Position numbers and translations under genes: made by a program. A stretch of DNA of 64,000 nt from Phoronis australis. Lineage: Eukaryota; Animalia; Phoronida. Positions 8,961-53,224 of the stretch are shown here, piece by piece. Every line of letters begins with the position of its first letter. Positions within the stretch are counted from its first letter, which is position 1. The stretch lies in assembly GCA_002633005.1 (NCBI GenBank), contig NMRA01000803.1, forward strand, positions 1 to 64,000. Reading direction: 5' to 3'. The notes beneath the pieces were generated by a model. The model did no database searches. It was given only the letters and a program-made list of their open reading frames with translations, and was not told where the DNA came from.

Positions 8961-9157
8961 TAACATAGATTGATCGTGTAAAGATTTTTGGCCAGTACCC
9001 AAAACAAATTCAATGTGAGGGTTTAACCGGCAAATTGTCGTCACACCGCGTTGAGGACAAAAACACGTGTACTAGAAAAATCGTCCGCCATCCGCTCTGT
9101 AGTATAGTCCACTGGAGGGCTAGGAAGCGAGACGTTGTCTGTGTGCCTCTTTTAATA

Positions 9158-9356
9158 ATGGACTTTGGAAAGTGTTTTCCAGTTTTTATATGTATCATGG
9201 TCAGTGTTATGCCTGCATGGACAATTCCAATCATGGACTGCACGCCCCTTCAATATTATAATGAGGGACTAGAACGCTGTCGTCCGTGCTCCGAGATTTG
9301 TGCAACAGAAATCAGAACCAGACTCGACAAGTGCTTGAAACATTTGTCGTGTAAGG
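9158..9356 (+). CDS. First coding exon of a TNF-receptor-like protein: signal peptide + TACI/BCMA/Grindelwald-type cysteine-rich domain
   Basis: ATG 9158; hydrophobic MDFGKCFPVFICIMVSVMPAWT followed by CTPLQYYNEGLERCRPCSEIC...C....C; GTGAGT donor at 9357 (phase 1). Downstream exons not found. Confidence 0.6.
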
Positions 9357-10767
9357 GTGAGTATAGGTTACATCAAATTGAAGGAACATTATCTTATTTA
9401 GGGCCGAAAATTCAGTTTGGGGATTACTTTGGATGGGATGCACTTGTTTAAGTTATTATAAGCTTTGACCAGAGTTATTTAATGACAAAATCCGTTGTGT
9501 TTTTGTTATTTGATTACGAATCGCCAATTCTCGCCGTTGTCTGCCAGACATCAGCTGAAATAAAGGCCGATGACTCTGCCACTTAAGATTTAAAATACTT
9601 TGATTTCATTTACGGAGTGCGATTTAGCTTAAAATGTTCTGCGATTTATGACAGCGGCGTTTATCTCCGCCAGCTGAGGGCATGACTGCGACCGCGGATG
9701 TTACAGGTTCCGCGCTGAAGTTGATTTATGAAAATCACTTCTCTCGCCAATAACGTCCCATTACACGACGGCAAACTATATTTCGAAAGAACTCTTACCA
9801 CTAAATTTATTAGCAAATCAGAAACGAGTTAACAGAAACTGATATTGTCGAAGCGCGTTATCGCGGCATTATTCTTTTTCAGTATTCCATTATGCTTTAA
9901 ATAAAAAATCAAATTAAGTAATAGAATGCAGAAAATAGCTTTTGACTGAAATCTGGCCAATTGGACGCCGAAGCGAGCGATACCGAACTTAACGCTGTAT
10001 GAAAAATGCTTGTGTGAAACGTACTAAACAAATATATACGAGGCTGTAATTTGTGAAATGTCTAGTCCTATTTTAATGATTTTTCAATTTTCGATTGATG
10101 AAACTGATTTCGTGTTTTAATTTGGTGATAGCTAGGACCAATATCCCTCCCAGGTGAAAGCAATGGAAAGTACAGTTGTATTTACACAATACACCCCATT
10201 CAACCGATGATATGCAAACAGCGCATTACCCTTTTGCACGCTCTGTTGGTTTTGCACAAATGATCCGGCGTTGTGCATTGTTGTTCAGGACACAATGCCG
10301 ATTGTCCAGTTCGCCTATTCCTGTGTAGTAGGGTGTGTAAACGCTATTCTCTTGGCATGTCGACAACGAGCAACATTTCAAGTTCGTTGCTCAGCCCAAA
10401 ACATAAAGACTAACGCCAATTGTCGGTTATTTCCAGTAGAAACATAGTCAAACACAGCAGTGATGTGAAAAGTAGGAAACCTGTAGGATTCAATTTTTGA
10501 CTTTATACACGAATATGCCCTTCATTGAGTACGTGTTTTTAGTATCAATATCATGACCAAATTTCATGTGGTGTAAACATTCAATAAGAAACATAAAAAA
10601 ATCTGTCAAGATTTCTAAATTCTCATTTTGTTTTCGCAACATTCGATTTTTCAAAAAATTTTACAGAAAAATTCATGATAGACAGCTAACTACAGAGAGA
10701 ACAGTGCATAACTCATAGTTTCTGAAAGTCTCTCTTGAATCTGATGAGACATTTCTGAGACAAGACG

Positions 10768-10909: not shown

Positions 10910-12472
10910 AGACGTTCTGAAGTTGGCTAAATTTTGCCATTTTTATGGTTGCTAATATTATACCTTAACTAAATCTAACGAGCACCCCAGCACTCCTCCT
11001 CAGCAGGTAATGCCATCTCTGAACTGTGTAATGGATGCTTTGACCAGTTGATTAATTGTTCACTAGCCATACCTTAGGCATCATTTCTGTACATANGAAA
11101 ATATGTCTAGGATAACCAACCAACCTTATTTTAGCACAAAATGACATGGAAAAAGGTTGCCTTCGCCTTTAAAGTATTTACTAAGTGTTACAAATGAAAG
11201 TCAGTCCTTTGGCCTTACTGTGGCTATTTTTATCAAGAGCGACGCGTTTTTCACGTTTATTTTAAATCTGGGCCAATATGAAAGACAAATTCGCGGTATT
11301 CTGCGCGTGCAACAGTTCATCTGAATTTTGAGATAAAAAAACTTGCAATGGGCGTTTACTCATATCGGATTTAAATAATGTTAACGCGGATATATACCCA
11401 CCTTCCATCACAAAAACCAACTTTTGATTCAGAACACTTGCCATAATAAAGTTGGCTTCAAATTTTTTCTTGGCCAAATACAAAGTAATTTCAGGTCTTC
11501 GAAAGAACACACAGTCCGTTATTGATTGAGACCAGGCTTTGCAAGGTACATCGTCACGGCGAATCACTGATTTATGCACCACACATGGTTGAGAGGAACA
11601 GCGTACAGTCAGTTGATGGTAAACCTCCAGATCTCTTCTCATCTTAGTAAGGATCAAGTTCAGACTAATTCTATTTGCAACAATTGGTCTCAATCCAAAA
11701 TTAACTATTTGGACAGAACGCGGGTTTGTAGCCGCTTCAAAGATATTCTACAGGCTTCATATTAGTTTGAAACTTCATAAAATAGGTTTTAACCCATCAG
11801 TTCAGTTGAAACGTATCCTAAATCATGCGCGCATCCATCCTAAAAAATGGGGGGCTCTAATTTTTTAGAATGAGGTCCTTTTACTAAAAAAAAACGGTGT
11901 ACGTTAGGAGCTATGAATTGTGCATTCACCGGTTTTTGGTAGATCTTGCCTTTTTAGTGAACTTTTGTCTCGTTTTCTACTTTTTCGGACTTCTTTTCTT
12001 GTTTCTCTGAGGTGTACCTTTTTGGCACCCGCCCCCCCCCCCTCCCGAGTGCGCGCATGCAAATAACGCTCCTTCAACACGTCAACAATATCTGATACAG
12101 TAACAAAAGCCACATCCAAGAAAACGCTCACGGATTTGACTTCAACAAAACCAAAGACTAGATGAGTCTGGTATTCAACAGTGAAATAACGTTTATGGTC
12201 AACCTTTGTTCCGACGATAATTACACGTGCGTCACAAGTTACTTTCCACAGATGAAGAGGAAACGTGTGTTGGCGAAATCAAGGCACTTAATATGAGAAA
12301 ATACAAAGTATAAAAATAAAAATAGCAAATTCAATCTCTGGCAAGATGTATAATAAAAGAAGTCACAAGAGATGTTGTTAAACAGCTATAGGATTAACTT
12401 TCAAATTTGAAGTTCTGAAATCAAAAAAAAACAAAGTGGTTTGCAGTGCGTCAGAACTTGGGCCCGTTGGTG

Positions 12473-22009: not shown

Positions 22010-25000
22010 TCAGCTATTACCTCCACACAGTCCGCAACTTCTTTTACAGTTGGTCTTCATATAATTGGCGCTCTTCTGACATTCCCCGTTACTTGCCCAA
22101 TAAGAGCAGTGCTCGCTTTTGTCGGTGCAAGTACCTGAAAATAACAAAGAGTCTTGAGAATCGCTGGTCCCCGAACAATTTAAACTTTGGCGTTTGCAGG
22201 TAGATATTTATAACCTTATACTCAGAATATAATGTGGACTCTGCGAGTTAGCCGAGATCACGCAAGTCATCGCGAGATATCGCGGCCATGCATCGCAGGC
22301 GAAACGGTGACCTCACTTGCCGCGAGCTTTCACCCGATAGTACCTTGCGTAACGAAAAGGGGTTAAATAAGAATAAATGTGTCAACATTTTTCCCAAAGT
22401 ATTTCAAGAATAGTATTTCTTTGGAAGATCTTTACTAGGAAAGCATTATTGGCTAAGGGGGACTTGTTCATTGGAAAGTCTCTGTTTTGATAAGACGGTA
22501 TGGGCTACGATTGCGATCGTGCACGGTGTAGTTCCTACATATCCAATGGATGAAGGTTATCGAAGTGTATGTTCTGACAGTCAAAAGAGATTTGCGCGGT
22601 TAAATGGAGAGTAAGCAACACTCAGACCGTGACAGGCTACTACTGGAATGAACAAGAATTTAAATTAACACAAATAAATTTTGAACGTTCCTTAGGAAAG
22701 GACTCCCATCCACTCGCGGTGTGTCCCGTCCCCCGTGCTTTCCGAGTTGCACGTCAAGTACATGTACATGTATCTGCGAGAATCTCATTGCCTAAATTTT
22801 CCACATTGCGAATTACGGATTGGAAAATTTCTGCAATTTAGAACTATGCCGGCAGTTCACTCTTCTGAAAATTTTCACGTGCAATTTCAAAACTTGACAA
22901 TAGAGCTTTCTTATTGTCAGTCACCAAATCAGATGGAAAATCCAAGGAGAGCCGGTTCATAGCAGCTTGAAATTTAGTGAGTTGTACCAGTGAAGGAGTA
23001 ATAATGCCCATGTCGGGAGTGCTCAGGACCAAGAAGAATCACAAAGGCGAGAGTTTCCCGAATATGCCCAAAACATCACTAGCGTAATGTAAAATGGCGG
23101 TCATTGAAGTGATTGGTCTATGATGTTAGAATGTTAAACTAGGAGATAGAATTCACCGTTTCCGTTTTATAAGGGCCGAAAGTTAAGTTCAAACCTTTGT
23201 ATCCCCCCACCCCTCCCCTCCTCACATCGCAGTTGGTCCACACTTGCCCGGCCTCACTCAGATGACAAGGCAGTCCCGGTCTCAAAGAACTGACAAGTCA
23301 TTATTGGTAGAGTTCATGCTCGATGAGTAAACTGGTTGTTGAGTGTGGGTTGAAGCAATAACGAGCTCTCAATTATTTCTAAGCCCAGAAATCACGTCTA
23401 GTTTGGCTAAAGAACAATTTGAGACCAATTTCATAACGGTCAGTGGTCTTAATCAGAAGTTGAATCGTGGGACAAAAGGCTGATTTATCAGTAACCAATT
23501 TAACTTACCACCTGTTCCGGTTCCTGTCCCGGTTCCTGTCCCGGTTCCTGTCCCAGTTCCTGTCCCGGTCCCGCCTTGGCAGTTCGTTCTAAAACCTGCA
23601 GATTCTTCAATTTCTAAAAAAATTCAAATGTGTCGAGCTATATAGTATGCAAATCATTTATAAAAATCGCCAAAATCTTGAACGACCACGTTTGAAGTAG
23701 CATAAAGGCTTGAGTTAACGAACTGAATAGCCTACATATCGACGTAGTCACGGTGACGCGTGAAGGGATGACAATCAACGGTAAGTTATATTTTAAAATA
23801 TTCATTTAATATTTGATGGTTTCAAGTTTCACAGTTTTGATCTTTATACACAATGTTTGCTTTGTCGCGCAATTCAACAGCTTTTCCAACTATCGCAAGC
23901 ACGAGGCTTGCGTTCCATAGATTCAAGACCTTCGCGAAAACGAAAGATCACCTAAGACTTCGTGTTCCATTTTATACAGGTTTCAGTGCTTGCGGGACTA
24001 CACTTTACTAATTTTTGGGAAGTGTGGCGAACAGAAGTATAGTTTGCAAATAGAAGTTAAGTCGCAGCAACATGTCTTATTGATGACACAGCCAGGGCCC
24101 ATGGTCTAATCTTTACTCGAAATGCAATTGTCTCAATTTTTTGAGATTTTCTATAATTCTACTTTAACATAAACTCTTGATAACTTTCATTAATCTGTGT
24201 TCGGTTACAGTATGGTCTAAGCATCTGATCCTATGTACCTGATGACCCCTAATTTGCACTTGATGATCCCCAAGACTCGATCTACAAACTTTAGTAGAAA
24301 CTCGAGATTAAAAGTAAAACCTTGAGATTTCAAGTTCAGACTTGGTGTCATCATGTCCACAGTAGGATTGCAGAAGCCTTATTATACTCGAGCACAAAAC
24401 TAGAGTAGAGCAGACAATGCCAAAAATAGTTTAGAGCAAGTGATCACCCTTGCTTCCACTAGCGTGCATCTTGTTACAGAAAGGACCTCAGTTATCCTAT
24501 ACTTACGCCTTGTGCTTCCACATCGTTTGATGTAAGTATTTTGACAAGGGAAAACTTCAAGCACTAGGTCGTATAAAGTTCTGTCATAAGACTGCAGTTG
24601 ACTTTTTGTGGTCACGTGATTGCGAACTCCATCTGGCGTTGCGGAGTATGGCTTCACGTTGAAAAAAGCGCGGGCGCCTTCGGCCTGAATATAGTGGAGA
24701 GAGTGGCGTTAGTAATAAGAACACGTCAGGTCGATGTGAATAGCGGGCATTCTTGTAGGTTGCATAAAACACATAAATGTAGGAACAAAGAAACTTTTAG
24801 GTACGTGGGATCCTCGTCATGTACCGGGTATCCCGCATGTTAAAATTATACTGGGCCTTGTTTTAGCCCATGAACATTTACTGAATAATATATAAATCTT
24901 TGAAACAGAATAACGTCCTGTTAACTTCGTCACTCGTCAAAAGGTTGGAGCAAAATTGAAAGTCCATCTTATGTCTGCTAACTACACAACAGTGCATAGT

Positions 25001-28000
25001 TTTCTTTCCAGCACACGGTGCCTTTCTACGCACACAGCGTGTGCATGAGCGCATAGCCATTACACGAGTGTAGATGAGGTACATTCAGTGTAGTAACATT
25101 CTAAGATAACTCCTTTCCAGTACAAGGTAACAAAGTGTTTGTGATGCCGGACCAGGGGAACTTGTAAACAAGAACAATTTGCTCCCAAATTGAAAAGATC
25201 ATAAATGAAGTAGGTTACGTAGAACAAGTTTTTTGCGAGATTGGTGATATGCGAGAACACGCTAAAATTATCCAAGTGTTTTGCTGCCAGTACCCAAGCT
25301 TCACTCTCGTAGACTAAGGAAGCAGCCGCCACGGCGAGGTGATAGGTTGGCGATGCTAGAATATTGAGCTAAAGGAGAAAATTATCTATTTCCACAAATT
25401 CCATTCCAAAGGCAACGATTTCTCGTCCTACGTGTTCGTGCTAGCGACTTGCCTTAGTTAACCCACACCATGTCAGCGGTGACACATTGCATCTTGGACA
25501 AAATTTGGGCCTGTAAATGATTACTTTGCCTTTCGTTTCGTATTTAAATCGGCAATAAGCTCGGGTACTGTCGAATAAGTGAACTTTTTCGCTTAGACAG
25601 TTTACCCTTATCAACTTGTTCCTCACTCAGATGAGAAATGGTTTCTGGATTTGTAAAGAACTGGCAGTTCGCTATTCCTTGAGATCATGTTCGGCGCATC
25701 AACTGAAACGCTGTGTCAAGCCAACCTGTGCTGTCTGGTCTCAAACAATAATGATTTTCTAATGCTTTTGACACCTTCAAATCACCCTCAGCTTCTGTTT
25801 TGAAACCAATTTCAAAGCGGTAGGTGATCTAATTCGTTCGTTTGTGGGGGAAGGTGGGTTTAAACTGAACGAAATTCACTTACGAAGTACTCATGAAGCG
25901 TGCTCATAGAGTAAGTATTTGCCCAAAGTCCACGACTCTTGGCGCTGTTGTAGGCATTGGTTAGTCGTTGGCGATAATTGTTTATGGCGAAAGTGGCTCC
26001 CAGGATTTCAACACCATGTAAAAACTCATGGATGGCGATATCCTCGTCGCTGCAATGAAAATAATACAACTTTGATTCTAGCAGTCTGTGTGTGTAGAGG
26101 CAGAGTGACGTATGACATAATTAAATGTTTTACTGCCTTTAAAATGTGCCTCATAACTGCTGACTAAATCGCTGCTGGATCTTAATAGCGTATGGTCTCA
26201 TTAAAATAATTCATAAGTTGGAAGATACCTTATAATTACTTGGCGAAATAAATTTCGCCAAGTATACTGCTCTTAGATCAAGTTTTTTGTTCGAACTCTA
26301 CAGGTCCGATTCCCACGAAATTCACTAACAACCCGTAGTCCCGAAAGTACTGAAACCCTATTGTTTTTCGTCACGATCTGATCCAAGATGGCGGACGTGG
26401 TGGCCATTTTTTTCGATTTCAGATGGAAAGACTCATTGAGGCCGCAACTTTTGACGAACACATTTGAAAATCGGAAAAATGTAGAAGTAGACAAGAAGTA
26501 CCAATATCTTCAAAATCATGAACTTAAAGATGGCGGAAATATCGGCGATTGCGCATGCGCATCTCGATTTCGGGAAAAAAGCGTTTTTTCCTGCAAAGGG
26601 TGCATTGAAAATTTTTCAGGTTTTCAGTTTCTTGCAACTAACTATTACTAAATGCTGCGTAACTGCAAGTTCCTTTCAGGATGGAGGATCTGGTGCATTT
26701 TCACCCATTTTCAATCGTGCTGGAGTGATATTTTCAACGGGAAGAGAAAATGAAGTGAATTTTTGTATGTAGTCTCTCTGAGGTATACTCTTTCATAAGA
26801 CGTCTAATAATTTTTTCACAGATGTACTGTTATTGAGTTATTTGCCTTTGAATTTCAAAAAAATGCAAATTTTCGAAAATGTTACGGAATTTTAAAACAC
26901 AGTCTCTTTAGATAGAATTTTAAACGGGCTTTCTGAAGATATTTTTCATTTCTCACTAGGACGTCTACTTTTTGGGTTATATGAGATTTTCTGATAACGC
27001 TGTTCCTTTGTTGACCGATTGAACACGACTGTAGCCTATTTCTCACTGATTTCTGAATTTTTTTTCATCATGTGAATGTTTTCATCATGTTCATAATCGC
27101 CACCACCATCATCATCGTCATCATCATTCCATTGAAGTCTTTTCAGTAAGTTTCGCTCTTCCGAGCGCTTTCATATTATTTTGTCAGTATGGCAGATGGT
27201 GCGAGTTGTTTTGCAACAAGATAATTGACTAAAAGCAGACGAGTATTACATTGTGAATTATTTTAGCAACCACGTTTATCAACTAGCTGTGAGGCAGTTA
27301 AAAGCTGGACAACGCACTGTTTTTTTGTTTTTTTTAATTTAGAAGCTGGGCATTTACAAAACCTTAGTTTTAAATGTGTGCAGAGATTAATGAAAGTGTG
27401 CGAGACAACGCTTTTCCTGGAAGGTGGTCTTTAACAGTCAGGATTTGAGCCTGCTGAAATTAATGAAACACTGAACGATTCCCGGATCTTGCATATCGCC
27501 AACTTACTGCCAACGGTCTAAGTTCTTCTGACAAAGAATGTTTTCTTCCGCGCCCGTGCAGATTGGTTGATGTGTAGTAGCGCCAAAGCCTCGTGCTCGT
27601 GTGTTCCAGTAGTCAGGGAGATTTGAGTGTTCTGGAATGTCAGTGGTCTTTTGGTTTTTCCCGATGATTCCCATTCTACCAAAGTGTTGGTAATACGAGT
27701 TCCGAATGTCATATCGATCCGCGAATAGAAATCGCACGATGTAGCAAGCTCTCCTAAGAGCATCGTCAGCGACAACACTAGATGCTGAAATACGGTCATA
27801 GGATTATTTAAAATAGTATAGAACAAAGGGCTAACTTTAAAATCGCCCACGGTTGATTTTGCCCCTATGCCTCTGATGTCTTACGTTCTAAATATGTTGA
27901 TCCTTACATAAGGCGGTGAGTGGTGGAAATGATTCCAAGGCGGCATCTTTCAAGTTCACCTACGATCCTCCTAATCTCTGTCCCGGACCATCATACATCA

Positions 28001-31000
28001 AACCCATGTTACAATACCCTGGCCACGGGCTCTAGTCACAACTCCAAACTGACACAAGTCGAAAATGCTATCTTCGGCACACCAGTTGATCATACTCTAG
28101 TACGGGTGCAAAATTCCCTACTTAGACCGGTCCTTCTGGACTGGAGTTTGGTCACCGGGTATGTGGAGAACGTTTTCGGCTCGCGTGTGTAGTTTAGGGG
28201 TGGAGGCGGTCTGGGATTTGTACCACGACGGGCCAGATTTGTTGTCCAATTGTCCGTGACAGGCGCTGACAGGATCCTTCCTGAAGCTTTAGGCTACTAC
28301 ACCGTAAGACATGTGCATGTTTTCATTTATAAAATTGATTATAAAAACAACGCCGATAGGATAGAGGGTGTGAGTGGAGCAAATAATTTTAAAGGGAGAG
28401 TCAATACAATACAAGTTCGACTGGGGAAACGTGGTTCTTACCTACGATAGGGATCCCGTACGCCTCTGTATACTTGCGATAGAAATATGACAATCCGCTG
28501 GGTCTCATGTGGGTTGCACTTCGCAAGTTGTTAGGAACCGCTCTCACATGATTGCAACTATGCGTGTTTGTGGCGGAGCCTGGACGAAGAGTTGACCGTC
28601 GACGATAATCTGCAAGATAATAATTGTCTTCATCACCGTCCCATTCAGCCGGGGTTAGTTGTGGTTGTGTGCCCTGCGCGTCAATAAACAATGCAATATG
28701 CGGACAGAGTCATTTGCCTTTTGCTGATTCACCGGACTATTGCCGCAAGCAAATGTATTTGCTTCGCTTACATTCGTACATTAATCTACGAATCGGAATA
28801 CCTCGGGTGTTTTCGCAGCATCAAATTTGTCTGCCCCGAAATAACGCGCCGAACATGACGGTGACATCCCGTTGCTCCCAACTTGTTCGATTGTATAGCC
28901 CAACAACAAGTTGGGAAGTTTACTCCCCCCCCCCCCTCCGTAGTCAATTAACTCCATTCTGGCGTTGATGGTTGGAAGGCCTGCGCTCTTTTGTTTGATA
29001 ATTGCTCTAATCTCCGATCAGATTGTATCTAGCCTGACTGGGGTGGGCTGATAAAAATGAAAGTTAAGTTAATTCAGATATTATCGCACGTTCAGCATCC
29101 CTCACGTCTGGAAAAGTTACTGAACGACAGGACGCTGTAATGAGGTGAGATTAAACATGTTTACTTCGGCAGAGGTAGGTTTATTCCACGGTTTATCAAT
29201 GTTCAAACGCACCTATGACGCCAGGGCGGCGCGCCATACGGGACTGGGGCCATAGCCCCCACCTATTTCCGGTGCGGCGCTGCCCTTGCTCTCATATGCA
29301 GCGCAGACGAGTAGTGGGGCTGGGGGGCGTTCTATAACTACCCCCACTTATTTCACATGCTGCACCGCCCATGTGACGTGGTTGACCAAGAATAACAAAT
29401 AAATCATGGGCCCTCACTAAACTTTCCGAAAATCAAGGCAATTCTACGTCGCGCAACACTATATGTATGTACATGTATTCCCGATGAGATCAGAACGCGA
29501 CCACTTGAGAATTCTTCAGCGTGCTGTTAATTTCAACATCGTGGCGTTTGCACAGCCAGTGATCAAGAAATATTCCCATATTCCAAATAGAGGTTTCCGA
29601 TTCAGTGACGTTATAAAACGATTCTGATTGGATTACACATCGGCATTGTTTGATCACACATCCATCCATATGACCTTACTTCACTATAAGCAGTCATATT
29701 TTAGTATCTAATTGAATGGAGAGACCTCAAAATTCAAAGTTTCAAAACACAGAAGGTGGTGTTAAACCTTGGAACTTGGAGTTGCGTTTGGGATGTTGAG
29801 CACCTTAAATTTGAAGTCGCCATGTCGACGAGGGGGATTTCTTCTTACACACCAGCAGCGCTGATAGTTGTTTTTCAAATACCCTGTGGTGCTGTGATCG
29901 CGGGCTCCTAAGGCATTCGCTGACGTCACTGAAAACTCGGAGGCATGATAGATTATAGACAGCAGATTTGCAACTCGGACATTTTCTTGCGAGATATCCT
30001 AGAGGAGGCGCCACCCTTCTAAATTACCAATTTCAGTTTCCGATTAGTGTATTGTGACGGGAAATTCTCCCATATATTTTACTGTCTAGTAAAACGAAAA
30101 AAAAATAAATTCGACATTAAAACGCTGTTCAAAGTCCTCCAATAGTAAAATTGTTGGTACTGTGAGTACTTTTGGCGATGTTACTGGTCATGTAATTGCT
30201 AAATTCAAACTTCAGTGCTGCAAACATTTAGCCCTTTACATTTCGCCTGTGTGACCGAACACCCGACCACACAACGGCCGACCATGATTAGCAGACGACG
30301 TACTTGCCTGAAGTAAAACTTGCTAATTTTGCCAGGTGTCGCAATTGAATAATGACGTCACGACTTATGCGTAAGCTCATAGCTTTCGTCTATTGAAAAT
30401 ATATGGAGTTGGCGGTCCATGTCTATGGAGACATGTATAAACCTGGGATGGGTTCCGTATACGCAAAATTTTGAGTAGTGAAACTTGTGTGATCACGTAA
30501 TTGGTTTGCATGGAGATATCTCGGCAGACCATGCATTAATTACCTTGCTTTTTAGGACGTTCTTGGGTTTACGGAATGACGCAGGCCTAGCATCATACAG
30601 CCAATCAGGCTCCAGTTTGAAAATCACGTGAGTTACAGCCTGGCTGAAGTCTGCACAGGTACAGATAACGTTCAGCTACGGGGTGGCATCAGCTTCGTCC
30701 ACGAGCCTCAAGATGACGATATGATCTGTTTCGCCATTGAGGCTGTATCCCTTATGTGCGCAGATTGGTGGTGCACGACATTGACCGCTGACAAGAGCGA
30801 CACATGAAACCTTCAACCATCTGACGATTCTCGTACTTACTTCTTTAAGGTGATGTGATAAATTTAATTATTTTCCACCAGAAGCTAAACAAGATCAAAA
30901 CGCAAATTTTCACTCTCTCCGCAGGCGTTGTTGGCTACCATTCGTGATTTGGAAGTAGAGGACGCCGTTTTCATTATTGTTTGAAATAAAAGGCCACACG

Positions 31001-31994
31001 CGTACTTATTGTCAATTATTGACAGCACCATACAAATTGTCCTGATCTAAACCTAAATTGCGGCATAAACACCACTCATGTTGATTTTTGTATTATATTA
31101 GAGCAATTTGCAGAGGTGATATAACTTGAATTAATAGAGCTTGCGATATTAAGGCGATTTCTGTAAAAACATGTCAGAATTCTACTAGGTAAATTTCTCC
31201 TCACCAAGCCGCAAATGGCTTATCAGCGCCATCGCCAGGCTTGGGGACGAGGCTGAGGTGACATTTGGGCAACGAAAATAAGTGTGCGCTGTCCAGACGA
31301 CTGTCCCGGCGACAGTCGTTCAGTTGCTCATGACGAGAATGGACAGTCCTGCCATTTGACTTCATCCGGAACACTTAGGCGTTTTCGTTGCCTCAAATTT
31401 CCTCTCGGAGATGAATGATATCTGCATGTGTAAACTTCAGCCATGGCATTCTTCAGACTGAAAGTCGCACTAATGATTTTCCAAATGATTAAAGTCTGCA
31501 CATGTACAGATAGCTTTTACATCTGAGAAGAATTTGGAGACTGCGAAAAAACCCAGACTTGTTCTGGACGATACAGCTGTATGTAGAACGTACACGTTTC
31601 TGACATACGCCGAACATGGTTTCAAGAGACATTTGTTTTGCCTAATTATCATAAATCTAGTTTTAACGATTAATCTCCACTTATAATGATGGCACGGCAA
31701 CAAGTCCGAACATGATTTTCAATTAAAGTCGCAAATCAAGAGGTTTATTTTTAAAACGGCGGTGAATCATCCACCTGCTTCAGCCGGTCAAAAAATGCCT
31801 TGCGAACACAATATTGTAATTTACAGCTTATGAACGTTTATCTGCGTTTCTACAGCAATATGCCTACTTACTTGCTGCCACATCCGGGGTATTGTAAAGT
31901 ACGTAATATTCGGCGTCGCCAAGCGGGAGAGAAACAGCGCCTGCGTTATCGCCAACAGGGTCTTGCGGTAACTCTGAGGCGACTTGGTAGGAAG
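22010..31994 (-). CDS. Multi-exon zinc metallopeptidase (anthrax lethal factor/PPEP-like, M34-like gluzincin) with Gly-Thr linker and C-terminal ShKT domain; 5' end not located
   Basis: Phase-consistent GT-AG exons: 31994-31872 and 30650-30544 (both tentative), 28673-28442, 27784-27508, 26049-25884, 24684-24507, 23613-23509, 22134-22010 (TGA). Spliced protein: FYRKYTEAYGIPIVASSVVADDALRRACYIVRFLFADRYDIR...TTDIPEH...YWNTRARGFGAT...TGAEENILC...EDIAIHEFLHGV...GLWANTYSMSTLHEYFAEG...NHVTTKSQLQSYDRTLYDLVLEVFPC, then (GT)n, then CTDKSEHCSYWASNGECQKSANYMKTNCKRSCGLC. Confidence 0.88.
23509..23575 (-). repeat. Coding 12 bp tandem repeat (gggacaggaacc)n encoding a (Gly-Thr)n linker
   Basis: Plus strand (ggttcctgtccc)n inside exon 23613-23509. 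Confidence 0.85.
28855..29072 (-). repeat. ~220 bp diverged repeat, inverted partner of 34367-34588
   Basis: Reverse complement shares ggagattagagcaattatc.aacaaaagag, gccagaatggagttaat and ttcccaacttg with 34367-34588. Confidence 0.8.
29221..29373. mobile_element. GC-rich MITE, 5 bp TSD TGACG
   Basis: ccagggcggcg ... caccgcccatg termini flanked by TGACG on both sides. Confidence 0.6.
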
Positions 31995-33045
31995 CTGAAA
32001 GTAAAAGAGAGAAATTGACATTGCCGCTACGTGCCAAGTCACGATCCAGAAATCTGTCACTCTATCGATCAACCTCACTTTAAAGCTTCCAACATTTGTC
32101 CATTTTTAACCTCATTGTCAATTCCCCACTGATCGCGAACGGAAATCATTTCCAAGATCTTCCCGGCATTCTCCCCACACTCAGCTTTAACAGTTAATTA
32201 GACACAGGGTGCACTCGCAGCTGAAATGTTCAAACTGAGAAATCCAGACACTATATGACGCAACCATTAAAGTTTTGCTCCCGGGAGTTGACAGGAAACT
32301 TGAATTTATTTTTAAGGATTTTTCGTTCTACATTTGTGCCGGCGAACTCTTATTCTGTGTTCGATTGCAGTAACAGTTTACGTGGACGAGTCCTAGCTTG
32401 CACTTGATGACACCGGAAGGCGGAAGACACTGTAAGTTCAGTGTCGCAACTCGAAATTTCAAGTTTTTATTCCAGTTTGTAACTCGAATGAAGGAGTCGC
32501 CAGATGCAAACTTGAACTAATCAGTCCATTCCATATGGTACTCGAACACAGAAAACACTTATTGCGACTTCCCTTAATGTAAGTGCGGGTTTCTTTGTTC
32601 AGCCTTAACGATATTGTGAGAAACGTCTTGACAGTTGTGGATGCAGAGTAGGACTCATTTTTTGGAAACGAGGTGGTTGAGATTAAAAATCTTGTTTGAT
32701 TATTTCTGATCTATCGGAAAGCTCGGTATTGTTTGTAAATATCGATAACTACATCCGTCTGTAGTTTGTCACGAAGAACTGCCTCCCGTTCAGCAACGCT
32801 AGGACCTCGCTAAAAAGCAAGACTTCTCGAGATTACGTGAGATATTGCCGTGCATTTTAAATAAGAGCACGTGACTTTGACTAGGTTTTAGCTAGGTCCT
32901 AGCGTAGGTCCTAGCGTCTACTGAACGCACGCCAGGATTCAGACTATAATCTTTTACTTGTGACTTACATCTAAATGTGAGGATACCCAACGTGTTATCA
33001 TTTTTGTCTTTTTGAGAATATTCCTTTCCAAAGAACTGGGGCTCG

Positions 33046-33199
33046 CAGTGACGGATTTCGGGGGACCAAGGAGGCCATGGCCCAACTAAAGTTCTCCCAA
33101 ATTCCATTTGACAATTTGGGGGTTCAGATGTCTGACGGGCAATATTCTGGCTAATACTCTGCTCTGTCCCCCTTACTCAAAATCCTGGATCCGCCCCTT
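33046..33199. mobile_element. MITE (same family as 10768-10909)
   Basis: cagtgacggattt ... caaaatcctggatccgcccct; shared internal attccatttg and taatactctgc; imperfect TSD gctcg/tctcg. Confidence 0.7.
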
Positions 33200-34366
33200 T
33201 CTCGTTCCTAGACATAAGCTCAAAAACTGATTTAAGTTTAATTTTGAAGGTAGACATTTTTCGAGAGCTAGCGGTTAGTAGGCTATGGCTGCGGTCACAA
33301 TTTTAAGTGGAACGCCGGGGCCCCAATATTCAGTGACATAACTGAGTGATTTGAACTAGGTTTCATTGAAAGTGGGTTGTATGGAGAAAACGGCCACCGT
33401 CGAAGTCAGCGATGTTTAATACGCGCTTTTTGTGCGATGTAGCAAAGGAGTTAATATACCAAATTTGCTTATCTGCCTACAAGCACGCGTGTTGTTGACA
33501 GCGAGCTGCAACACAAAATGTCGCCTCCTGTGACACGTGGCTTCACGTCCATTAGTTCTAGAATGTCCATCTTTCTTATGTATATGTGCTTCGGATTAAC
33601 GAACATTGACCAAATAGCAATTTTAATTGATATTTTATCTTAAAAGGTAATAGAAAGAGAAAGTGCATGTTTTTGAAGTCCGAAAGGGAGACAGTGGGCT
33701 TTTTTCGGACTATTGCCCCCAACTATGGACCTAGACCCGATTTGAGCAAAATAATCATGTCCTTTCACAGCGCCAAAATATTTTCTATTTCCCCAGCTAT
33801 GACTCCCATTTTACGTATACACGTCACGACTTGATCTGTTGTTACCACCACTATTTCAACCAGAGGTTTGACATCATGGGAACAATGATATTTCTTTCAG
33901 CTTTTAGCTGTTTAAAACACTTTACTATGTTGCCACTTTTTTAAACTACTGGATCTCCCTTCTCAAAGGTGATCTTCTGATGTTGCACTGGAAAAATCAG
34001 TCAACCTGCCCTCAAACACATGCGTGTTTTTATTTCCTTCCACCACAATGTCATTAAGAAGTTATGACGGCTTTTTTTCCGTTCAGTGACTTTACCAGAC
34101 GTACAGGGTAGTGAGCGTGTGATAACATCTAGCTTCTTTGTTAACTGCCAAGCACAGTCTTTTGTCTAATATGACAACAGGCAGGCCAATTATCTAACAG
34201 ACCACATGTGAACACAGTCAAACCCAGACCGACTTAGTACATTCGGAAAGAATAGATTGTCGTAACTTCAGTTGTAGTTGGGCGATTTTGGCAATTCAAA
34301 CAATAAACATGACCACCATTTGACGAGGATTTCAGAAATGCAATTGGTTTATGTTCAAATATGTTA

Positions 34367-34588
34367 TAACTTAACTTTATTTTTAACAGCACATCCCAGT
34401 CGGGCTAGATATATTCTTACTGGAGATTAGAGCAATTATCGAACAAAAGAGAGCTGACCCTCCTACCATGAATGCCAGAATGGAGTTAATCAGTCGTGTA
34501 AGATATTGGCTACAGGGGTGTTCTTCCCAACTTGCTGTTTGGCTATAGAATCGAACAAATTGAAAGCAACGGGAAAACGCCGTAATGA
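34367..34588 (+). repeat. ~220 bp diverged repeat, inverted partner of 28855-29072
   Basis: Direct sequence comparison with the reverse complement of 28855-29072. Confidence 0.8.
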
Positions 34589-35747
34589 ATTCGTAACTAA
34601 GGTGGTAGACAGAACCCGTCGGCATCAGAAACTTTGGTCTTGCCTCCTTTTTTGTGGAGCATTAGCCATTACTACAAGGCAGTAAAACACTGTCTGAAAT
34701 AAATCAAACAATCATAGACTGAAACGGCTGTTTTTCTGTCAAATTGGCTTCTGAAATTGAATTCTCCGTGACAAAATTTTCATTGTCGTTTGTTCTCGAG
34801 CAAATGCGATAAGTTTTAGTCAACATACGATGTCATTGTTTCTGTTGTGCTTACAGGGTACTAGGAACCAGTAGCAGGGTACCAAGGGAAGTGTGTTTAC
34901 TGTAATGGCGGACACACAATTGGGTGTGACCTGTGAGCGCCAACAGAAGAGTGCAAGAACGCTTTAACAATAAAAACGTATTACCTAATCCTGGAAACTC
35001 TTTTCGTCTGGAGTTGAAAGTGTACGGGGTACATTTTTGACTATACCATGAAACTACTCATGTTAAAAAACAAGGGAACGTAGATAGGAACACATCTATA
35101 AATTCGAGCTGGCATATTTGATAGAATTCCATTCAAACAATCCGAGAAAGAAGGCGTTAAATTTATGAACCGTTTTCCTCCGTGTGACAAATACCATGCA
35201 AACTCATGAAATATGACGTCGCTTTCGTAAAATGTAACAATGCTACATTTATTGCGTGTGCATTCGACGTAAATTGTAGCAATTACATAAAATGTAACAA
35301 CCTTCTTACATTTTAGGAGAGGCCTAACAATGTAAAATGTAACGATGACGTATCAGGCGTATCAGGATATTGTGTTGTCGCTGAAATATATCTTTCCTGC
35401 TGGCAGTTTCGATAGCTCATTATACTTCACTAGCTGCTGTCTTAATCATCACTCAATGGGTTGTTTTTTTACAGTTCCTGGTATCCCAAAGTTTTAGTGT
35501 TATCAGCTATATTCCAAAATGCTCACTTTCCGCCACCATCCATTTGGCATTTATTGTAACCTTGTTATTATTTTTGAGCAAGGAGACAGTTCAGTGTATT
35601 ACGGAAATACAAGAATTCGCCATGGACTGCAAACTAAGCACGTGATCACACCTTTGTTATCAAAATTCTTGATTCTACAAAACTCTACCTAGACTTAACC
35701 GGGATCTTCATTGTCTAATCAGCAAAGTTCGGTAGCAGCCCTTCGCT

Positions 35748-36641: not shown

Positions 36642-37630
36642 ACGAGCGAAACTCACGAGAGACTACCGATCGTCAAGCTCTTAATGAAAGTTCTATTTTT
36701 TCAGAAAATGATCTGGTATTTCCATTTGACGTCATGTATTAGATAATGTACTAATTGTGTCATCAAAGTGCTTGTATTTCGTTGTTCGTGAGACTGAGTT
36801 GGACAAAGATTTACTGGATCTAGGCCCTACATCGCAACAACACTAGGCCTATCACAATCCCGAGTTGGAACGCGTTGACTGAGCTACCCGAGTCAAATGC
36901 CCAGTCTAACAAGATTTACAAGTTTTTTAACATTAGTTTGATCCTCTGCTTGGCTTGTCCGCAACACTGGCCATCGGCATTGCCAAGGTTCCACTTACCG
37001 TAGGCACCGAGTAATCTTTACCACATCTGAAGGTCACAATGCTGCAAAGCATTAGCAATTTTACACTTTCTGTAAATCCGCAATTCTAGTCACAAAAATC
37101 TACCATCGATGTAAGACCGTAGTTACAAGTATTAGCACATGATTTATAATTTCAGTTTACGTTCTACCCGGTGACCAAGCAGAGCCTAAACGCTTACCCA
37201 GAAGAACGAGGAGCGCACTTGCCGCAAACATGTTGATAGACCTACGTGTGGTGCGTTATCGGAGTCGTGAAGTACGTGAGAACTGGCCATGCAGCTTCGG
37301 GTTATATGGTTTGTCGCGCCCACCAATGAGCAAAAGCGTCGCCAATGGACAACACGGGCATGCGTATAGTCGTGTGTCTGTCACATATGGCTTACCCTTA
37401 CTGATAAACTTTGAATGTTCAACTACATGTACGATATTCACACATCCCCACGAAACTCAGTAGTGGACGACTAAGTTCCTCGTGCTGAACTCGGCATGTT
37501 GAATTTGTTTCTTTTTACTGTTTGATTTTGATAGATGTAAATAAAAGGGGTACACTTTTCAAAGCATAGTCAGATTATCCATGGAGCTAACTAAGCAGCT
37601 GTAGCTTGGGTGCCCCGCACAAAATAGGGC
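36642..37630 (+). repeat. Third, more diverged copy of the first ~1.2 kb of the 12.5/16.4 kb duplicated unit (interspersed repeat)
   Basis: cgaaactcacgagagactacc, ttctacccggtgaccaagcagagcct and gagcgcacttgccgcaaacatgttga shared in the same order. Confidence 0.85.
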
Positions 37631-42477: not shown

Positions 42478-45400
42478 TTAATCGACTATGCTCCGCAGAA
42501 CATATTTCACGGAATATGCGAACACTGCAAAACCCACAATGACTGCGAGGTTTGTGAGCGCATTTCCCACAATGCCTTGCTCCATGTTTCCTGGCATACC
42601 GTCCTGCATCTGATGTATGGTCGACCGTCCACTGTCATCGACATTAGTTTGCACACACTGGGCCAACTCCTCCTGGATTTTCTGCAGCTTATCACGAATT
42701 TCCTGGAAATGAGAACAGCACGGGGTAAAGTTAGTGAGTCTCTGAAGCCACATAACTTTAGCTACAGTCTCCACGATTTAGCATCGACTAAACAGGATAT
42801 TCGGCAGCCAAAATTTTGCAGCTGTAACTGTTGCAAAAGACCGATAAAGCTCCGTGCCCAAAAAATGTCAATTCATCACTTGTTTAGTGGATCAGGCGAA
42901 ATCTACACGGTTCGTATTAAGATCTATGTTCCCTGTCCCAGGATCTGAGAAGTGAACGATACATTTAGTCTTAAACGAGTACCCTGCACCAGACTTATAA
43001 CAGAGCACAGCGTTTGAATTGCATAGTCTCATAAGTTGACAATCTGTTCAAATCTCCCAAAATTAGACACAAATTGTTAGTATTCAATGAGAATTGGCTA
43101 CAATGAGCTGAGCTACATGGTTTGTGTCTAAACTTGGCTTTTCGGCATTGACAATGTCATCAGCTATGACAAAAATACTACTTATTGCTTCAAATCGAAA
43201 TATTCCACAGAGTTAAGCTATCACAACATTGTGTCTTGTGACAAAGTTATTGCTCCGGCACATTTCAGAGGAGTGTTCAGACAATCCATACCTGACATTC
43301 CAGAAGATGAACGTACATGTGCACTAACAATTTTTACCGGACATTCCAGAAGGTGTACGTACCTGCGTTATTTCTGGGAAAATTTCGCAAAATATCTGAT
43401 CTTTAAGATTTGTAGTGAGACTCTGAGCAGCCAACTGCCTTTTCTGCAACAGAGAAGAGAAACTGGCTTCCAGTCTGACACAAATGCTGCCCATGATCAA
43501 CCCATCAAGACGAGGCGTGCTCTAGACTGAAGTCACACCACACACATTTTGTTAGCAGGGCATAGTTACTAGGCAGTAAGTTTCCACATGTGATGGTGAA
43601 TATCAAAAGTTCCAATCTACCATGACTTGAATCTTGCCCCTGATCGCCATAAAGGTGGTCACAACTCGCATCTAACATAGATTCTGATTTATGAGCTAGG
43701 GAAAGAACTGACCAAGCGAAACGTTCTACCCATTCAATCACTGGCTCATCAATTTTACCCATACTTAAAGTTACTCAGCACACCACTTAAGTAAAAATGA
43801 GTGTTACCATGGGACATCCCATTTCAGCCAATGGTGAATGTTTTGAATACTTTTGCTGTTGAGGCATAAAATCGAGTTGCAAAATAAAGCAAGTTAACAC
43901 TTCTAGTTTTCTACAGTATACTCACTGTGAACAGAATAGAGCTTTTGGCTCTTATCTTTTGGCTTAAGAAATCACTGCATTGTTATTTCACCTTACTTTG
44001 AAGCCATGCTACAAATAACCAGGGCTTGGAATGACCAATGACAAAAAACGCGGAAACGTTGAAACTTTTACGGCCCAAATCATGCCCGATAACCAGCCTT
44101 GAAATGGTCAATGTGAACCTTTCCCCGACAAAAATCGGGAGGACTAAAAAAAACGTTACCACCATCAGTAGCATGCATCTGCGTCCTTTTAGCTCGCCCG
44201 TCCACTCCCAACCCACACATTTTTGTCTGCAGAGCGGTAGTATTTGTCGCCGCGCTTAACAATAACACGAGACGCCATTGAAAATCCCACCATGCTGTCC
44301 CAGATGCCCCGGCAATGTTGACAATTTACGTTCCTCCGAAACATAAAGAGCAACTTCCGCTTTTCGAGGTGAACGTCGTCTGCAACGCCGCGGTAAGAAA
44401 GGAATTTGCCGCGGAGATTTTATATCAAATCTGATTTTTTTAAGCGGAAATATTATAAAAAAAGTGGAAAGCAAATTTGAAAAAAGCGGAAATCCGCGTT
44501 TCCGCGGAAAATTCCAAGCCCTGAATAACTTAACATCACATGCAACCTAATTCAGTCAAAATAGAATGGAACTCATTTCAGGGTGAGCTTAGACAACTAA
44601 ATTGACCATGGATAAAACATTGATTAAAAAACAAACAAGACAGTCCGATACAAGAGGCATATCTTAACGACAGTGACAACCTGACAACCAAGTATATGAC
44701 TCACTGTATAATCTGACGTCTCCATACTTCCTAATGTTGGACTTTTCTCCAGCATGAAACTCAACAGTCCAGTTAGTATAGTCGACACGGACCAGGCAGG
44801 GTTCCAAGTGTCGGGGTGGAAGTCACTGATAGATAGACACAGCCTGAAATCAGCAACGCTTACTATAAATATCAAATGCGTCGTACATACCGCATTCCAG
44901 TGGTGGCAAGATGCTCAAGGCTATTTTTCAGCCATGCATTGATCAATTTTTGCAACAACACACAACTTGATGTGAAAGTGAAATTACGACTGAATGTTGT
45001 GCAGTTGGCAATTCTTGAAAACAAAAGTAGAGAAACGATGAACACAATGTGCTCTATGCACCAAGATTGAATTTTTGACGAGGAAGAAACTGCCTAGTAT
45101 CTCACAGACTCCCCCCAAAGGCACACCATTAGTGAACACATGCAACATTGTCTTAAATTACGTCTTACCTTGTATTGCACTTAAAGCGACCATTAGGTGT
45201 GATCATGTATATGCTAGGAGGTTTGAACGGAAACTCTCTCGGAAAAACAAGTTTTCCGTGGTAGTAGCCACCTTCGTACGGCGACTTCTCTGGTCCTTTC
45301 ACAACATAGTGCCTGTAATGTCAAAATTTGCAGTTTAGGGCCAAACCTGATATACCAGGCCTAAATAAAAATTAAGTTCATTTGCCCTTACCCAACCGAA

Positions 45401-50585: not shown

Positions 50586-52180
50586 CTACAACAGTGCTTT
50601 GAGACGTTAGAAGACGGCTCATCCTAAGTCAAGGCTTAGTGTTCGCTTGACTCTAGCTAAACAATCAAAGTTGCATTACTATTATATGCCTTTCATGTGA
50701 TTGATATGGACACTTAGCTGTATGAAGACTAATGCCAAAATACATCTAGGAACCGCTGTGTGTTAGAGCCTAATGAATCTCACATAGACCTCAAAATTAC
50801 ACACCAGCCACGTAGTTCTGCTCCTCACCAACCTTATATCAACAGTGGAACTAACAAACGGTAGAGATGTATGTAAAATTTGTGAATCAAGTGACGCTCT
50901 CTTTGCCCTGTAGACGACCACATACCTTAATGTAGCCTGTACGCCGAAAGCTTTTTGGCAAATTATCCCTAAGACTCACTAAACCATCAAAGTCGCATGC
51001 TATGACACCTCACTATGTCATTGATGTGTGCATAGTGACCATTGGCAACCCAGCCAGCTGGCTCTGTATTGTGTTGGGAGGGAATGTGTAATTGAAACTT
51101 GTGCTTCTCCTGTACTATGTCTGTCATGTTTGCTACATATCCAGCTTTTCTCACAAAGAAAAATCAATCCTTGACTTGAAAACAGTACGCTTGACATGCA
51201 CATGCACCATTTTCAAAATTTTTTTGTAAAATCTTTCGGGAGATGATGACAGCTTCACCGAAGGGAATTTTGCTGAGGAATTCAGTTGGCTGATATTAAA
51301 ATACTGTTACTTTAAAGCAAAGTAAAACCAATTCCAGTAACTTGGTATGAACTGTATACAACCTTTTGAAAGAATAACAGTTGATTAGCTCCAATTATTG
51401 TACATTATATTTTTCAGAGTTGTCCAAATTCATTTTACAAACAGCACCTCCGTTTTCGCCGAAGACCTCTGATATGTGAACACCATTTCCACCCACAACT
51501 TCAAAAATTTTGATTTAGAATGCCTGGCATGCCCAGCTCAACAAAAAGTTCGGATTTGAGTTTCTCATCTCAGTGCCCTGGGCATAATGTCAACAACTAT
51601 TGTAACCAGTTTGCATATTTGCACAAATAATTAAATTTTTCAAAGGGTGCAAGTGAGAAAAAGAAATAGAATGACTGGAAATATTGTAAGGCTAATGTAT
51701 AAGTCTAAGAAAGATTAAACATTCGTCGGCAACCAATGTGCAAATTACAAAAAGGTTGATTTTTTTATCAATGATATAGGATCCTTTGTGAATCCAGTGA
51801 CTTTAATGTGAATGCGAAGCTCAAGGGAAAGGTGAACAGGGATTAACTAGCCTTCATATAGCCAGGACGTAACTTCAGATGAGAAACCGGCAACAGCTGA
51901 AAAGCAGATTTAGAAATAAGTCAGCATACATTCACAAGGGATGTGCGAATAAACAGAAAGTAAAAATGCCAGCCGTTGCTGCGTGTTTGAATTAACAGAA
52001 ATATAAAATATTGATTTTGTTAACTACATGTAAGTTTGGGTGTGCTGAAAGCGATATGTGAAATTGTAGAGCAGTTGCCATAAAGCAGATGTAGAAAATC
52101 GCCACATTATGAAGTGTGTCAAAAAATTAGGCAACTATAATATACATGTTAAACCCCTGAATTGCGCTTCTCTTGCAGGC

Positions 52181-53224
52181 ATGGACATCATGACCCTTGG
52201 TCGACAGTTTGCTCGCCATGCATCTACTATCCTGATTGGAGGCATATTTTTGTTCTTCAGCGGTGTACTTTATCTGTCCTTTTGCCAGATGAATTGCAGT
52301 GAACATCAGTTTCGTGTTAAACACAATAAAGGCGTTCTTCTAGCCAAGAAACGCAACCTACCCGACACAGGGTCTTCTTGGCTTAAGGGATCAAAAACAT
52401 TATCTACCTTTCTGGCTGTTGTAATCATGACTGGTCCAGATAACGCACCCAGTCGAGATGTAATTCGCCAAACGTGGGCATCTTCCGTGTCAAGACTTTC
52501 GGAGGATGTCAAAATTTTCTTTGTAATTGGATCCGGTAATTTAGACATCAATTCCAGGCAAAAATTGGAATTAGAAAATCACCAGCATCACGATTTGTTA
52601 ATATTAGCAGCTTTAAATGATTCATACAATCAGCTAACAACCAAGTTACTAAAAACCTTGGTGTGGCTTGAACACCACGTTGACCTGCAGTTTGTGATGA
52701 AAGCAGATGATGACTCATTCATCAGACTGGACGTTCTCCTAGAAAAGCTGAAGGGTATGGAACCCAAAGCATTATATTGGGGATTTTTCAATGGTCCTGG
52801 CAGAGTTAAGAAGCATGGGCCATGGGCTGAAAACAGTTGGATTCTGTGTGACAACTATCTACCGTATGCTCTAGGTGGTGGCTATGTGTTGTCTGCAGAT
52901 TTGGTCACCTATGTAGCTTCCAATGCAAACATGTTTGTGAAATTTAAAAGCGAAGATGTTTCACTAGGGACGTGGCTAGCAGCTGTGAATGTGAACCGCG
53001 TCCATGACGTCAGGTTTGACACGGAGTACATATCGCGAGGTTGTAATAACGCCTACATTGTCACTCACAAGCAGAGCGCTCAAGATATGCATGAGAAGCA
53101 CGCAAATTTACTACAGACAGGAAAGTTATGCACCAAGGAGTTTCGAGTCAGAAACTCGTATCAGTACAACTGGAAACTTCCCAGATCAAAGTGCTGTGAA
53201 CGAAACGATCCAAGCATTCCTTGA
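52181..53224 (+). CDS. B3GALT6: Beta-1,3-galactosyltransferase 6 (GT31, GAG linker galactosyltransferase II), single coding exon
   Basis: N-terminal TM, RDVIRQTW, KADDDSF (DxD), LYWGFFNG, LCDNYLPYALGGGYVLSADLV, EDVSLGTWLA, HDVRFDTEYISRGC. ATG 52181 preferred over 52109 because an acceptor (tcttgcag) lies at 52171-52178. Confidence 0.95.
   Translation: MDIMTLGRQFARHASTILIGGIFLFFSGVLYLSFCQMNCSEHQFRVKHNKGVLLAKKRNLPDTGSSWLKGSKTLSTFLAVVIMTGPDNAPSRDVIRQTWASSVSRLSEDVKIFFVIGSGNLDINSRQKLELENHQHHDLLILAALNDSYNQLTTKLLKTLVWLEHHVDLQFVMKADDDSFIRLDVLLEKLKGMEPKALYWGFFNGPGRVKKHGPWAENSWILCDNYLPYALGGGYVLSADLVTYVASNANMFVKFKSEDVSLGTWLAAVNVNRVHDVRFDTEYISRGCNNAYIVTHKQSAQDMHEKHANLLQTGKLCTKEFRVRNSYQYNWKLPRSKCCERNDPSIP

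Follow-up and report, generated by a model that had tools for sequence, protein, structure and literature searches.

A spliced Phoronis australis gene for a probable M34-like secreted peptidase with two ShKT modules, member of a family widespread in animals and bacteria

The phoronid Phoronis australis carries, on the minus strand of the 64,000-nucleotide stretch analysed here (contig NMRA01000803.1 of assembly GCA_002633005.1, positions 1 to 64,000; hereafter the window), a real, spliced and transcribed gene which very probably encodes a secreted peptidase of the M34 type, that of anthrax lethal factor (LF) and the bacterial PPEPs, with two ShKT modules. It is an ordinary member of a widespread and apparently undescribed M34-like family, and the interest of the finding rests in the family. 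An earlier note, made from the bare sequence, had placed a spliced metallopeptidase-ShKT fusion at 22010-31994.

The gene comprises nine exons and eight GT-AG introns; its minus-strand exons have AG/GT ends and join in a single phase, and the structure is backed by stranded RNA reads in two runs with the same species label (X2 and X3). All eight junctions are spanned, by 23-81 reads in X2 and 19-50 in X3. Since these stranded reads cross every junction and a single family profile aligns to exons B-E in their proper succession, the exon chain is not a product of chance. The coding exons total 1278 bases, i.e., 425 residues and a stop codon, and the protein would begin with a signal peptide, followed by the M34-like peptidase domain, the Gly-Thr linker and a pair of ShKT domains. 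The exons are as follows (junction reads are given for X2/X3).

37198..37231, minus strand: exon 1, coding part (ATG and putative hydrophobic signal-peptide core, 11 codons); junction 37198-31994, 23/26 reads
31872..31994, minus strand: exon 2 (A), putative signal-peptide end and poorly conserved N-terminal segment; junction 31872-28609, 41/26 reads
28442..28609, minus strand: exon 3 (B), start of the peptidase domain; profile E 2e-15; junction 28442-27784, 42/19 reads
27508..27784, minus strand: exon 4 (C), N-terminal alpha/beta subdomain, which contains the IPEH, RARG and EEN motifs of the family; junction 27508-26049, 49/29 reads
25884..26049, minus strand: exon 5 (D), HEFLH, catalytic-type Tyr and predicted third zinc ligand Glu; hhalign probability 99.4; junction 25884-24684, 45/41 reads
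24507..24684, minus strand: exon 6 (E), remainder of the third-ligand helix and C-terminal subdomain; junction 24507-23613, 78/34 reads
23509..23613, minus strand: exon 7 (F), last core Cys and (Gly-Thr)n linker; junction 23509-22134, 61/26 reads
22021..22134, minus strand: exon 8 (G), first ShKT domain, six Cys, phase 1-1 exon; junction 22021-20638, 81/50 reads and one contig
20526..20638, minus strand: exon 9 (H), coding part, second ShKT domain and stop codon; junction reads, Pfam ShK

Spliced reads connect the protease part to the linker and the ShKT part, and the in-phase splicing and AG/GT ends of the exon chain in the earlier note are borne out, but that chain lacked the signal exon (37231-37198) and the last exon (20638-20526). 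The gene had been placed within 22010-31994, and its true first exon lies outside that range (23 and 26 reads). The in-frame stop taken for its end, at 22010, falls within intron 8, exon G splicing at 22021 to the ninth exon (81 and 50 reads), and the start of the linker exon is corrected to 23613 (78 and 34 reads). An isoform ending at 22010 was considered and rejected: read depth fits the spliced exon only and is zero just past it.

In a third run of the same study (11.0 million reads vs. 12.8 and 11.3 million) one of the eight junctions was seen, with 9 reads; expression therefore depends on tissue, stage or condition. Contigs of run X1 differ from exon C at 19 positions and carry a different second ShKT exon, which suggests at least one paralogue or divergent allele. 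No second peptidase gene was found in the window by tblastn of the exons. The protein itself is absent from the protein database searched, where the best identity to exon C is 68%.

Two copies of about 2.9 kb (12468-15423 and 16388-19272, 94% identical to each other) each carry a duplicate, at about 81%, of the region upstream of the peptidase gene together with its TATA-like box, ATG, signal exon and splice donor, with the ATGs at 13192 and 17081. Neither is followed by peptidase exons within the window, and at 95% likeness hardly any reads map to them; they are either orphan 5' duplicates or first exons of paralogues beyond the window. Interspersed repeats at 15723-16387, 28671-29237, 32640-33206 and 33774-34907, located in and beside the introns of the gene, are highly transcribed, with reads from both strands.

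The hydrophobic stretch of exon 1 (hydropathy 2.7 across 9 residues) would constitute a signal peptide for export; among the animal-side proteins of the family a hydrophobic N-terminus occurs in 39 of 48. A family match was searched for exon A and none was found. A basic RRR cluster opens exon B directly after it, and the N-terminal segment is possibly a propeptide.

The catalytic motifs reported in the earlier note are found in the spliced reading. HEFLH lies at 26030-26016, the first Glu of EYFAE stands 42 residues past the second His of HEFLH, and a Tyr precedes that Glu by seven residues; exon D holds no third His past HEFLH, hence no HExxHxxGxxH motif. These residues are a family property. 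In an alignment of 246 domain copies drawn from 282 proteins, H, E, H, Y and E are kept at 95, 91, 93, 91, and 92%, and the full set is intact in 212 of the 242 domains with all columns filled; the His-to-Glu spacing is 41-43 in 182 of 191 domains, 190 of which have the Tyr. The family profile also puts the Tyr and Glu of PPEP-1, -2, -3 and of the LF catalytic fragment in register, with weak E-values (0.07-1). The active set of PPEP-2 consists of His137, Glu138, His141, Tyr174, and Glu181 (PMC9147577).

A single window exon matches 763 representatives at E<=0.001 among 1.84 billion, and a full-length relative used as query retrieves 1216 clusters; members were examined among the best 150 of 763 and the best 120 of 1216 matches. 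The 92 matches of at least 240 aa among the best 150 of 763 are referred to as long relatives. The Pfam ATLF model (PF07737) has no match on the single peptidase exons; it reaches E<=0.01 in 18 of the 92 long relatives and exceeds the curated cut-off in two. Judged from sequence, the family appears divergent and at the edge of that model. Several relatives show weak Pfam M90 matches, every one below cut-off, and a PDB sequence search with exon D and an NCBIfam search on ten relatives returned nothing useful.

Folds were predicted for two natural relatives, P0174 (pLDDT 86; 62% identical to window exon C and 73% to exon B) and P0017 (pLDDT 94). All eight Foldseek matches at E<=0.001 are PPEP-2 or PPEP-3 chains. 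Against 48,161 chains, VIA-align ranked PPEP-2 first (Z 12.2 for P0174 and 13.1 for P0017; rmsd 3.3-3.4, about 170 residues aligned) and PPEP-3 second (Z 12.1 and 12.5), with lower scores for LF (10.5 and 10.4), the Certhrax N-domain (8.8 and 8.9) and the LF N-domain, 3dl1 and edema factor (7.3-8.3). For both models the top seven or eight rows are all ATLF-fold chains (Z 8-13); collagenases rank after this group (Z 7.1 and below; collagenase T, 7.1 and 6.6), and neither astacins nor matrix metalloproteinases are among the top folds. The models superpose on the PPEPs with rmsd 3.3-3.8 Å and 14-19% identity. On these predicted structures, relatives and PPEPs would share a fold group and form separate families; a shared fold by itself proves no function. 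Profile and structure searches on natural relatives thus agree with the LF/PPEP fold proposed in the earlier note, which had named ordinary metazoan peptidase families as the contrary outcome: the best folds of the relatives' models are bacterial M34 enzymes. The likeness to LF stands as far as the fold group goes, PPEPs being closer.

As is predicted for the window protein, PPEP-1 (Zmp1), PPEP-2, and PPEP-3 (MEROPS M34.002, M34.003; PDB 5a0p, 6fpc, 9g0j) are stand-alone secreted ATLF-fold domains with HExxH, Tyr and Glu, the Tyr seven before the Glu, and they are the best structural match of both models (Z 12-13). They differ in that the window family, compared here by sequence and fold, is longer (a Cys-containing core of about 260 aa), bears ShKT modules, and shares 11-19% identity with them. 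PPEPs are described from Firmicutes only in the available part of the source (PMC8610288), whereas the window family occurs in animals and ten bacterial phyla.

With the catalytic domain IV of LF, which we take to be MEROPS M34.001, the family shares HEFxH, the Tyr-x6-Glu-x3-Glu alignment and the fold (Z 10.4-10.5, relatives' models), at 14% identity. The earlier note had given the two proteins the same spacing; this applies to Tyr-to-Glu (7) but not to His-to-Glu, which is 45 in LF (counted on the alignment) vs. 42 in the window gene. In PPEP-2 it is 40 (PMC9147577). In LF a separate domain binds protective antigen, and the targets are MAPK kinases in the cytosol (PMC3841139, PMC12943098). 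In the window protein, in contrast, a signal exon precedes a single predicted ATLF-fold domain and ShKT modules follow it: no domain of the protective-antigen-binding type was found in its 425 aa, where about 55 residues of putative signal peptide and N-terminal segment precede the only family domain (exons B-E) and no room is left for a second ATLF. The putative signal peptide argues for an extracellular site of action, as against the cytosol for LF.

Two further groups invite comparison. MtfA, a cytoplasmic regulator of the Peptidase_M90 family (PDB 3dl1), falls in the same fold group (Z 8.1-8.2), but its Z is lower and Pfam M90 matches stay below cut-off throughout. Astacin-ShKT (M12A), trypsin-ShKT and CAP-ShKT proteins and MMP23 are likewise secreted proteins with C-terminal ShKT repeats, in which the astacins and MMP23 are metzincins with HExxHxxGxxH, whereas the window catalytic domain is predicted to be an ATLF-fold gluzincin; Pfam astacin has no match among the families listed for the 92 long relatives.

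The reading preferred here, held with evenly balanced confidence, is that of a gland-secreted enzyme which degrades extracellular protein (food, mucus, matrix) and does not poison cells. The signal peptide would direct export, and the short N-terminal segment might be cut off at the basic cluster. By analogy with M34 chemistry, zinc would be held by both His of HEFLH together with the Glu that lies 42 residues further along, while the Glu of HEFLH would activate water and the Tyr would steady the transition state. The ShKT modules, on a flexible Gly-Thr tether, may serve to bind substrates or surfaces, as exchangeable accessories of the kind carried by astacins and trypsins, and there is a faint indication that proline-rich substrates would be preferred. 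In Clytia the gland-cell genes include one for a ShKT-trypsin (bioRxiv 2021.01.22.427844).

The (Gly-Thr)n linker (23511-23569) and the six-Cys ShKT domain on exon G were both correctly recognised in the earlier note. Pfam ShK (PF01549; cut-off 20.9 bits) scores 46.7 bits for exon G (E 4.6e-12) and 46.1 bits for exon H (E 7.3e-12), over twice the cut-off, and both modules have the six-Cys pattern. Both lie on phase-1 exons, as would be expected if the modules had spread by exon shuffling. The nearest solved structures are the Brugia peptide 2mcr and MMP23 (2k72). In the family, 33 modules stand before and 125 after the peptidase domain, and ShKT is often swapped for Ig, ZP, TSP1, fibrinogen C, F5/8, EGF, ricin-B or PKD modules; given this variable placement and frequent replacement, ShKT behaves as an accessory. 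The fusion, of which the earlier note knew no characterised example, is common: Pfam ShK occurs on at least 39 of the 92 long relatives drawn from the 763 representatives.

These modules bear on a second explanation, which we consider doubtful: a defence enzyme (mucus, antimicrobial or venom) cutting microbial surface proteins or prey/predator tissue, with ShKT for targeting or channel binding. The secreted architecture suits it, venom astacins and trypsins bear ShKT (PMC7766711, PMC4202326, PMC6409789), ShK-related antimicrobial peptides exist (PMC12745922), and PPEPs cleave bacterial adhesins (PMC8610288). Expression that is clear in two runs of the study but almost absent from a third, the jellyfish members and the tandem expansions in snails and sea slugs (judged by gene names) also speak for defence. 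However, the dyad position is Asn-Tyr in exon G and Asp-Tyr in exon H, vs. Lys-Tyr in BgK and the Brugia peptide, and Lys occupies it in only 5 of 158 family ShK-like modules (counted by Cys pattern), which goes against the venom and channel-binding role suggested earlier. Loss of this Lys weakens pore block (PMC4202326, PMC6409789), but a ShKT lacking it may still modulate channels (PMC6409789), so the argument is a limited one. The single ATLF-fold domain with its putative signal peptide has no separate LF-like cell-entry domain beside it, and the ShKT proteases named in the available parts of the venom papers are of the astacin and trypsin types. The family is also conserved in many non-venomous filter feeders and grazers: members include mussels, abalone, amphioxus, sea cucumbers, and acorn worms, which are not venomous. 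A toxin is a weak reading because neither ShKT has the channel-blocking Lys, no cell-entry domain is present, and mussels and amphioxus have members; a mucus or antimicrobial role is possible. Venom surveys are thereby warned that ShKT alone is insufficient to file a protein as a toxin.

The degradation of extracellular protein receives a hint from the bacterial side, represented by the best 80 of 191 confirmed stretches in GTDB genomes, with neighbours scored by tblastn. A DPP IV-like gene lies within 4 kb in 6 of the 80 loci (4 after merging one clade), as against 0.5-0.9 expected (Poisson p 0.002-0.012), with partial S9 matches at three further loci; an M24 peptidase is a neighbour in 4 of 80, as against 0.7-1.0 expected (p 0.007-0.02), and together DPP IV or M24 accompany 8 of 80. 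An upstream SusC-SusD pair in the same direction occurs in 4 of 80 loci (one Bacteroidales clade) and a TonB-type barrel in 4 of 80. These neighbours hint at peptide nutrition and at substrates rich in proline, which agrees with the structural match to PPEPs; if proline-directed, the enzyme would be useful. At L016:3-3286 the bacterial relative sits directly between DPP IV-like and M24 prolidase-like genes. Loci L009, L011, L013, and L015 share a conserved Bacteroidales run (SusC, SusD, an unknown protein of about 330 aa, the peptidase and a T9SS-tailed protein of about 530 aa), a candidate protein-utilisation locus.

Nutrition of this kind fits these relatives, which belong to soil, water and gut lineages and in part to uptake or peptidase clusters, better than a third explanation does, namely a processing enzyme of narrow specificity whose targets would be one or a few extracellular proteins of the animal itself (adhesive, egg-coat, matrix, receptor), as PPEP-1 frees adhesins. 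We regard it as unlikely, and no substrate candidate is encoded nearby in the window. It draws on the narrowness of all M34 enzymes characterised in the literature consulted (PMC8610288, PMC3841139), PPEP-1 being inactive on casein and gelatin, on the fusion of the domain to ZP, Ig and TSP1 in amphioxus and to an adhesion GPCR in Acanthaster, on deeply conserved non-catalytic motifs, and on sample-specific expression.

Several points weigh against the preferred reading of a degradative, extracellular enzyme. PPEP specificity does not appear transferable to the family, because identity is 11-19% and the profile E-values are 0.07-1; the fold models are of relatives' proteins only; and the family is present in venomous jellyfish too. 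As for the bacterial neighbours, background densities come from five genomes, the queries were picked post hoc, several loci are kin, and with the queries used 65 of 80 loci are free of any peptidase or uptake neighbour. Lastly, at two conserved columns close to the third-ligand helix the window copy carries Arg instead of the usual Gln (236 of 246 domain copies) and His (202 of 246). This deviation, and the 30 of 242 family domains in which some residue of the catalytic set is missing, would favour a weakened or inactive enzyme serving as a binding protein. Such a fate is very improbable for the window copy, in which all five catalytic-set residues are present; LF likewise has Arg at the first column, and seven other members have it at the second.

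Among the matches listed, named members of the family span seven animal phyla, and bacterial relatives come from ten named phyla. Animal members occur in cnidarians (Clytia, Rhopilema, Sanderia), molluscs, an annelid, a sea spider, a barnacle, echinoderms, hemichordates, amphioxus, and a tunicate; no vertebrate, insect or nematode names appear among the best 120 of 1216 and best 150 of 763. Nearly all named members are annotated "uncharacterized" or "ShKT domain-containing," some already bear a weak ATLF label in databases, and a search of the ESM Atlas returned hypothetical clusters only, one mollusc-rich with ATLF in 17% of members and one bacterial with ATLF/M90. A JGI label "alpha-glucosidase" on one bacterial cluster was discarded, as neither motifs nor fold support it.

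In a FastTree phylogeny of the core domain (103 rows) animals and bacteria are parted by one branch (support 99), which recurs in a quick IQ-TREE analysis (LG+G4, SH-aLRT 100) of the 70 rows left after removal of 33 near-copies and long branches. The window gene falls among the animal sequences; it shares 61% identity with a Mytilus protein and has no well-supported sister. The tree is unrooted, is built mostly of named proteins and takes top matches for both sets; it therefore shows a single animal group and not the direction of transfer. The family is a candidate for ancient bacterium-to-animal transfer. As a possible but tentative scenario, it would have been gained once from bacteria before the cnidarian/bilaterian split, with modules (ShKT, Ig, ZP, lectin, adhesion GPCR) added by exon shuffling, and would represent the first animal branch of the LF/PPEP group, a secreted proline-directed endopeptidase.

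Full-text searches, which covered neither subscription papers nor most supplements, returned no account of the family. LF-like metallopeptidase toxin domains are listed for bacterial groups only in the part of PMC3482391 available, and the characterised M34 enzymes in the literature found are all bacterial; a catalytically intact family in seven animal phyla fills a gap in the animal protease catalogue. A coral "peptidase M34" (PMC12745922) proved on a term search of the supplement to be a single PF05572/hemopexin protein of different sequence, outside this family. The family has diversified in domain content. In Acanthaster planci P0074 and P0291 the ectodomain of an adhesion GPCR (GPS and 7tm_2) opens with an intact copy of the peptidase domain. 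Large mosaics of Ig/TSP1/ZP or EGF/LDLa/ShK types (P0001, P0002, P0025, P0056, and P0173, Branchiostoma where named, and P0055, P0091, P0093) contain copies devoid of the zinc motif and make up a pseudo-peptidase branch. The bacterial-type proteins P0004, P0070, P0128, P0132, P0138, and P0145 have two or three tandem copies, often a single one with an intact zinc motif, which echoes the dead-plus-live ATLF pair of LF. PF05572 corresponds to the M43 family.

Elsewhere in the window one further gene was identified.

52070..53224, plus strand: beta-1,3-galactosyltransferase 6 (B3GALT6), single exon, about 50% identical to molluscs, a brachiopod and vertebrates alike

Pfam returned nothing for the stretches 54758-55183 (minus strand) and 8969-9451 (plus strand), which seem reminiscent of MRPL47 and a TNF-receptor-like N-terminus, respectively; 42478-42702 (minus strand) seems reminiscent of the UBE2J2 C-terminal tail. 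Together with B3GALT6, these UBE2J2, MRPL47 and TNF-receptor-like stretches would echo a human 1p36 neighbourhood.

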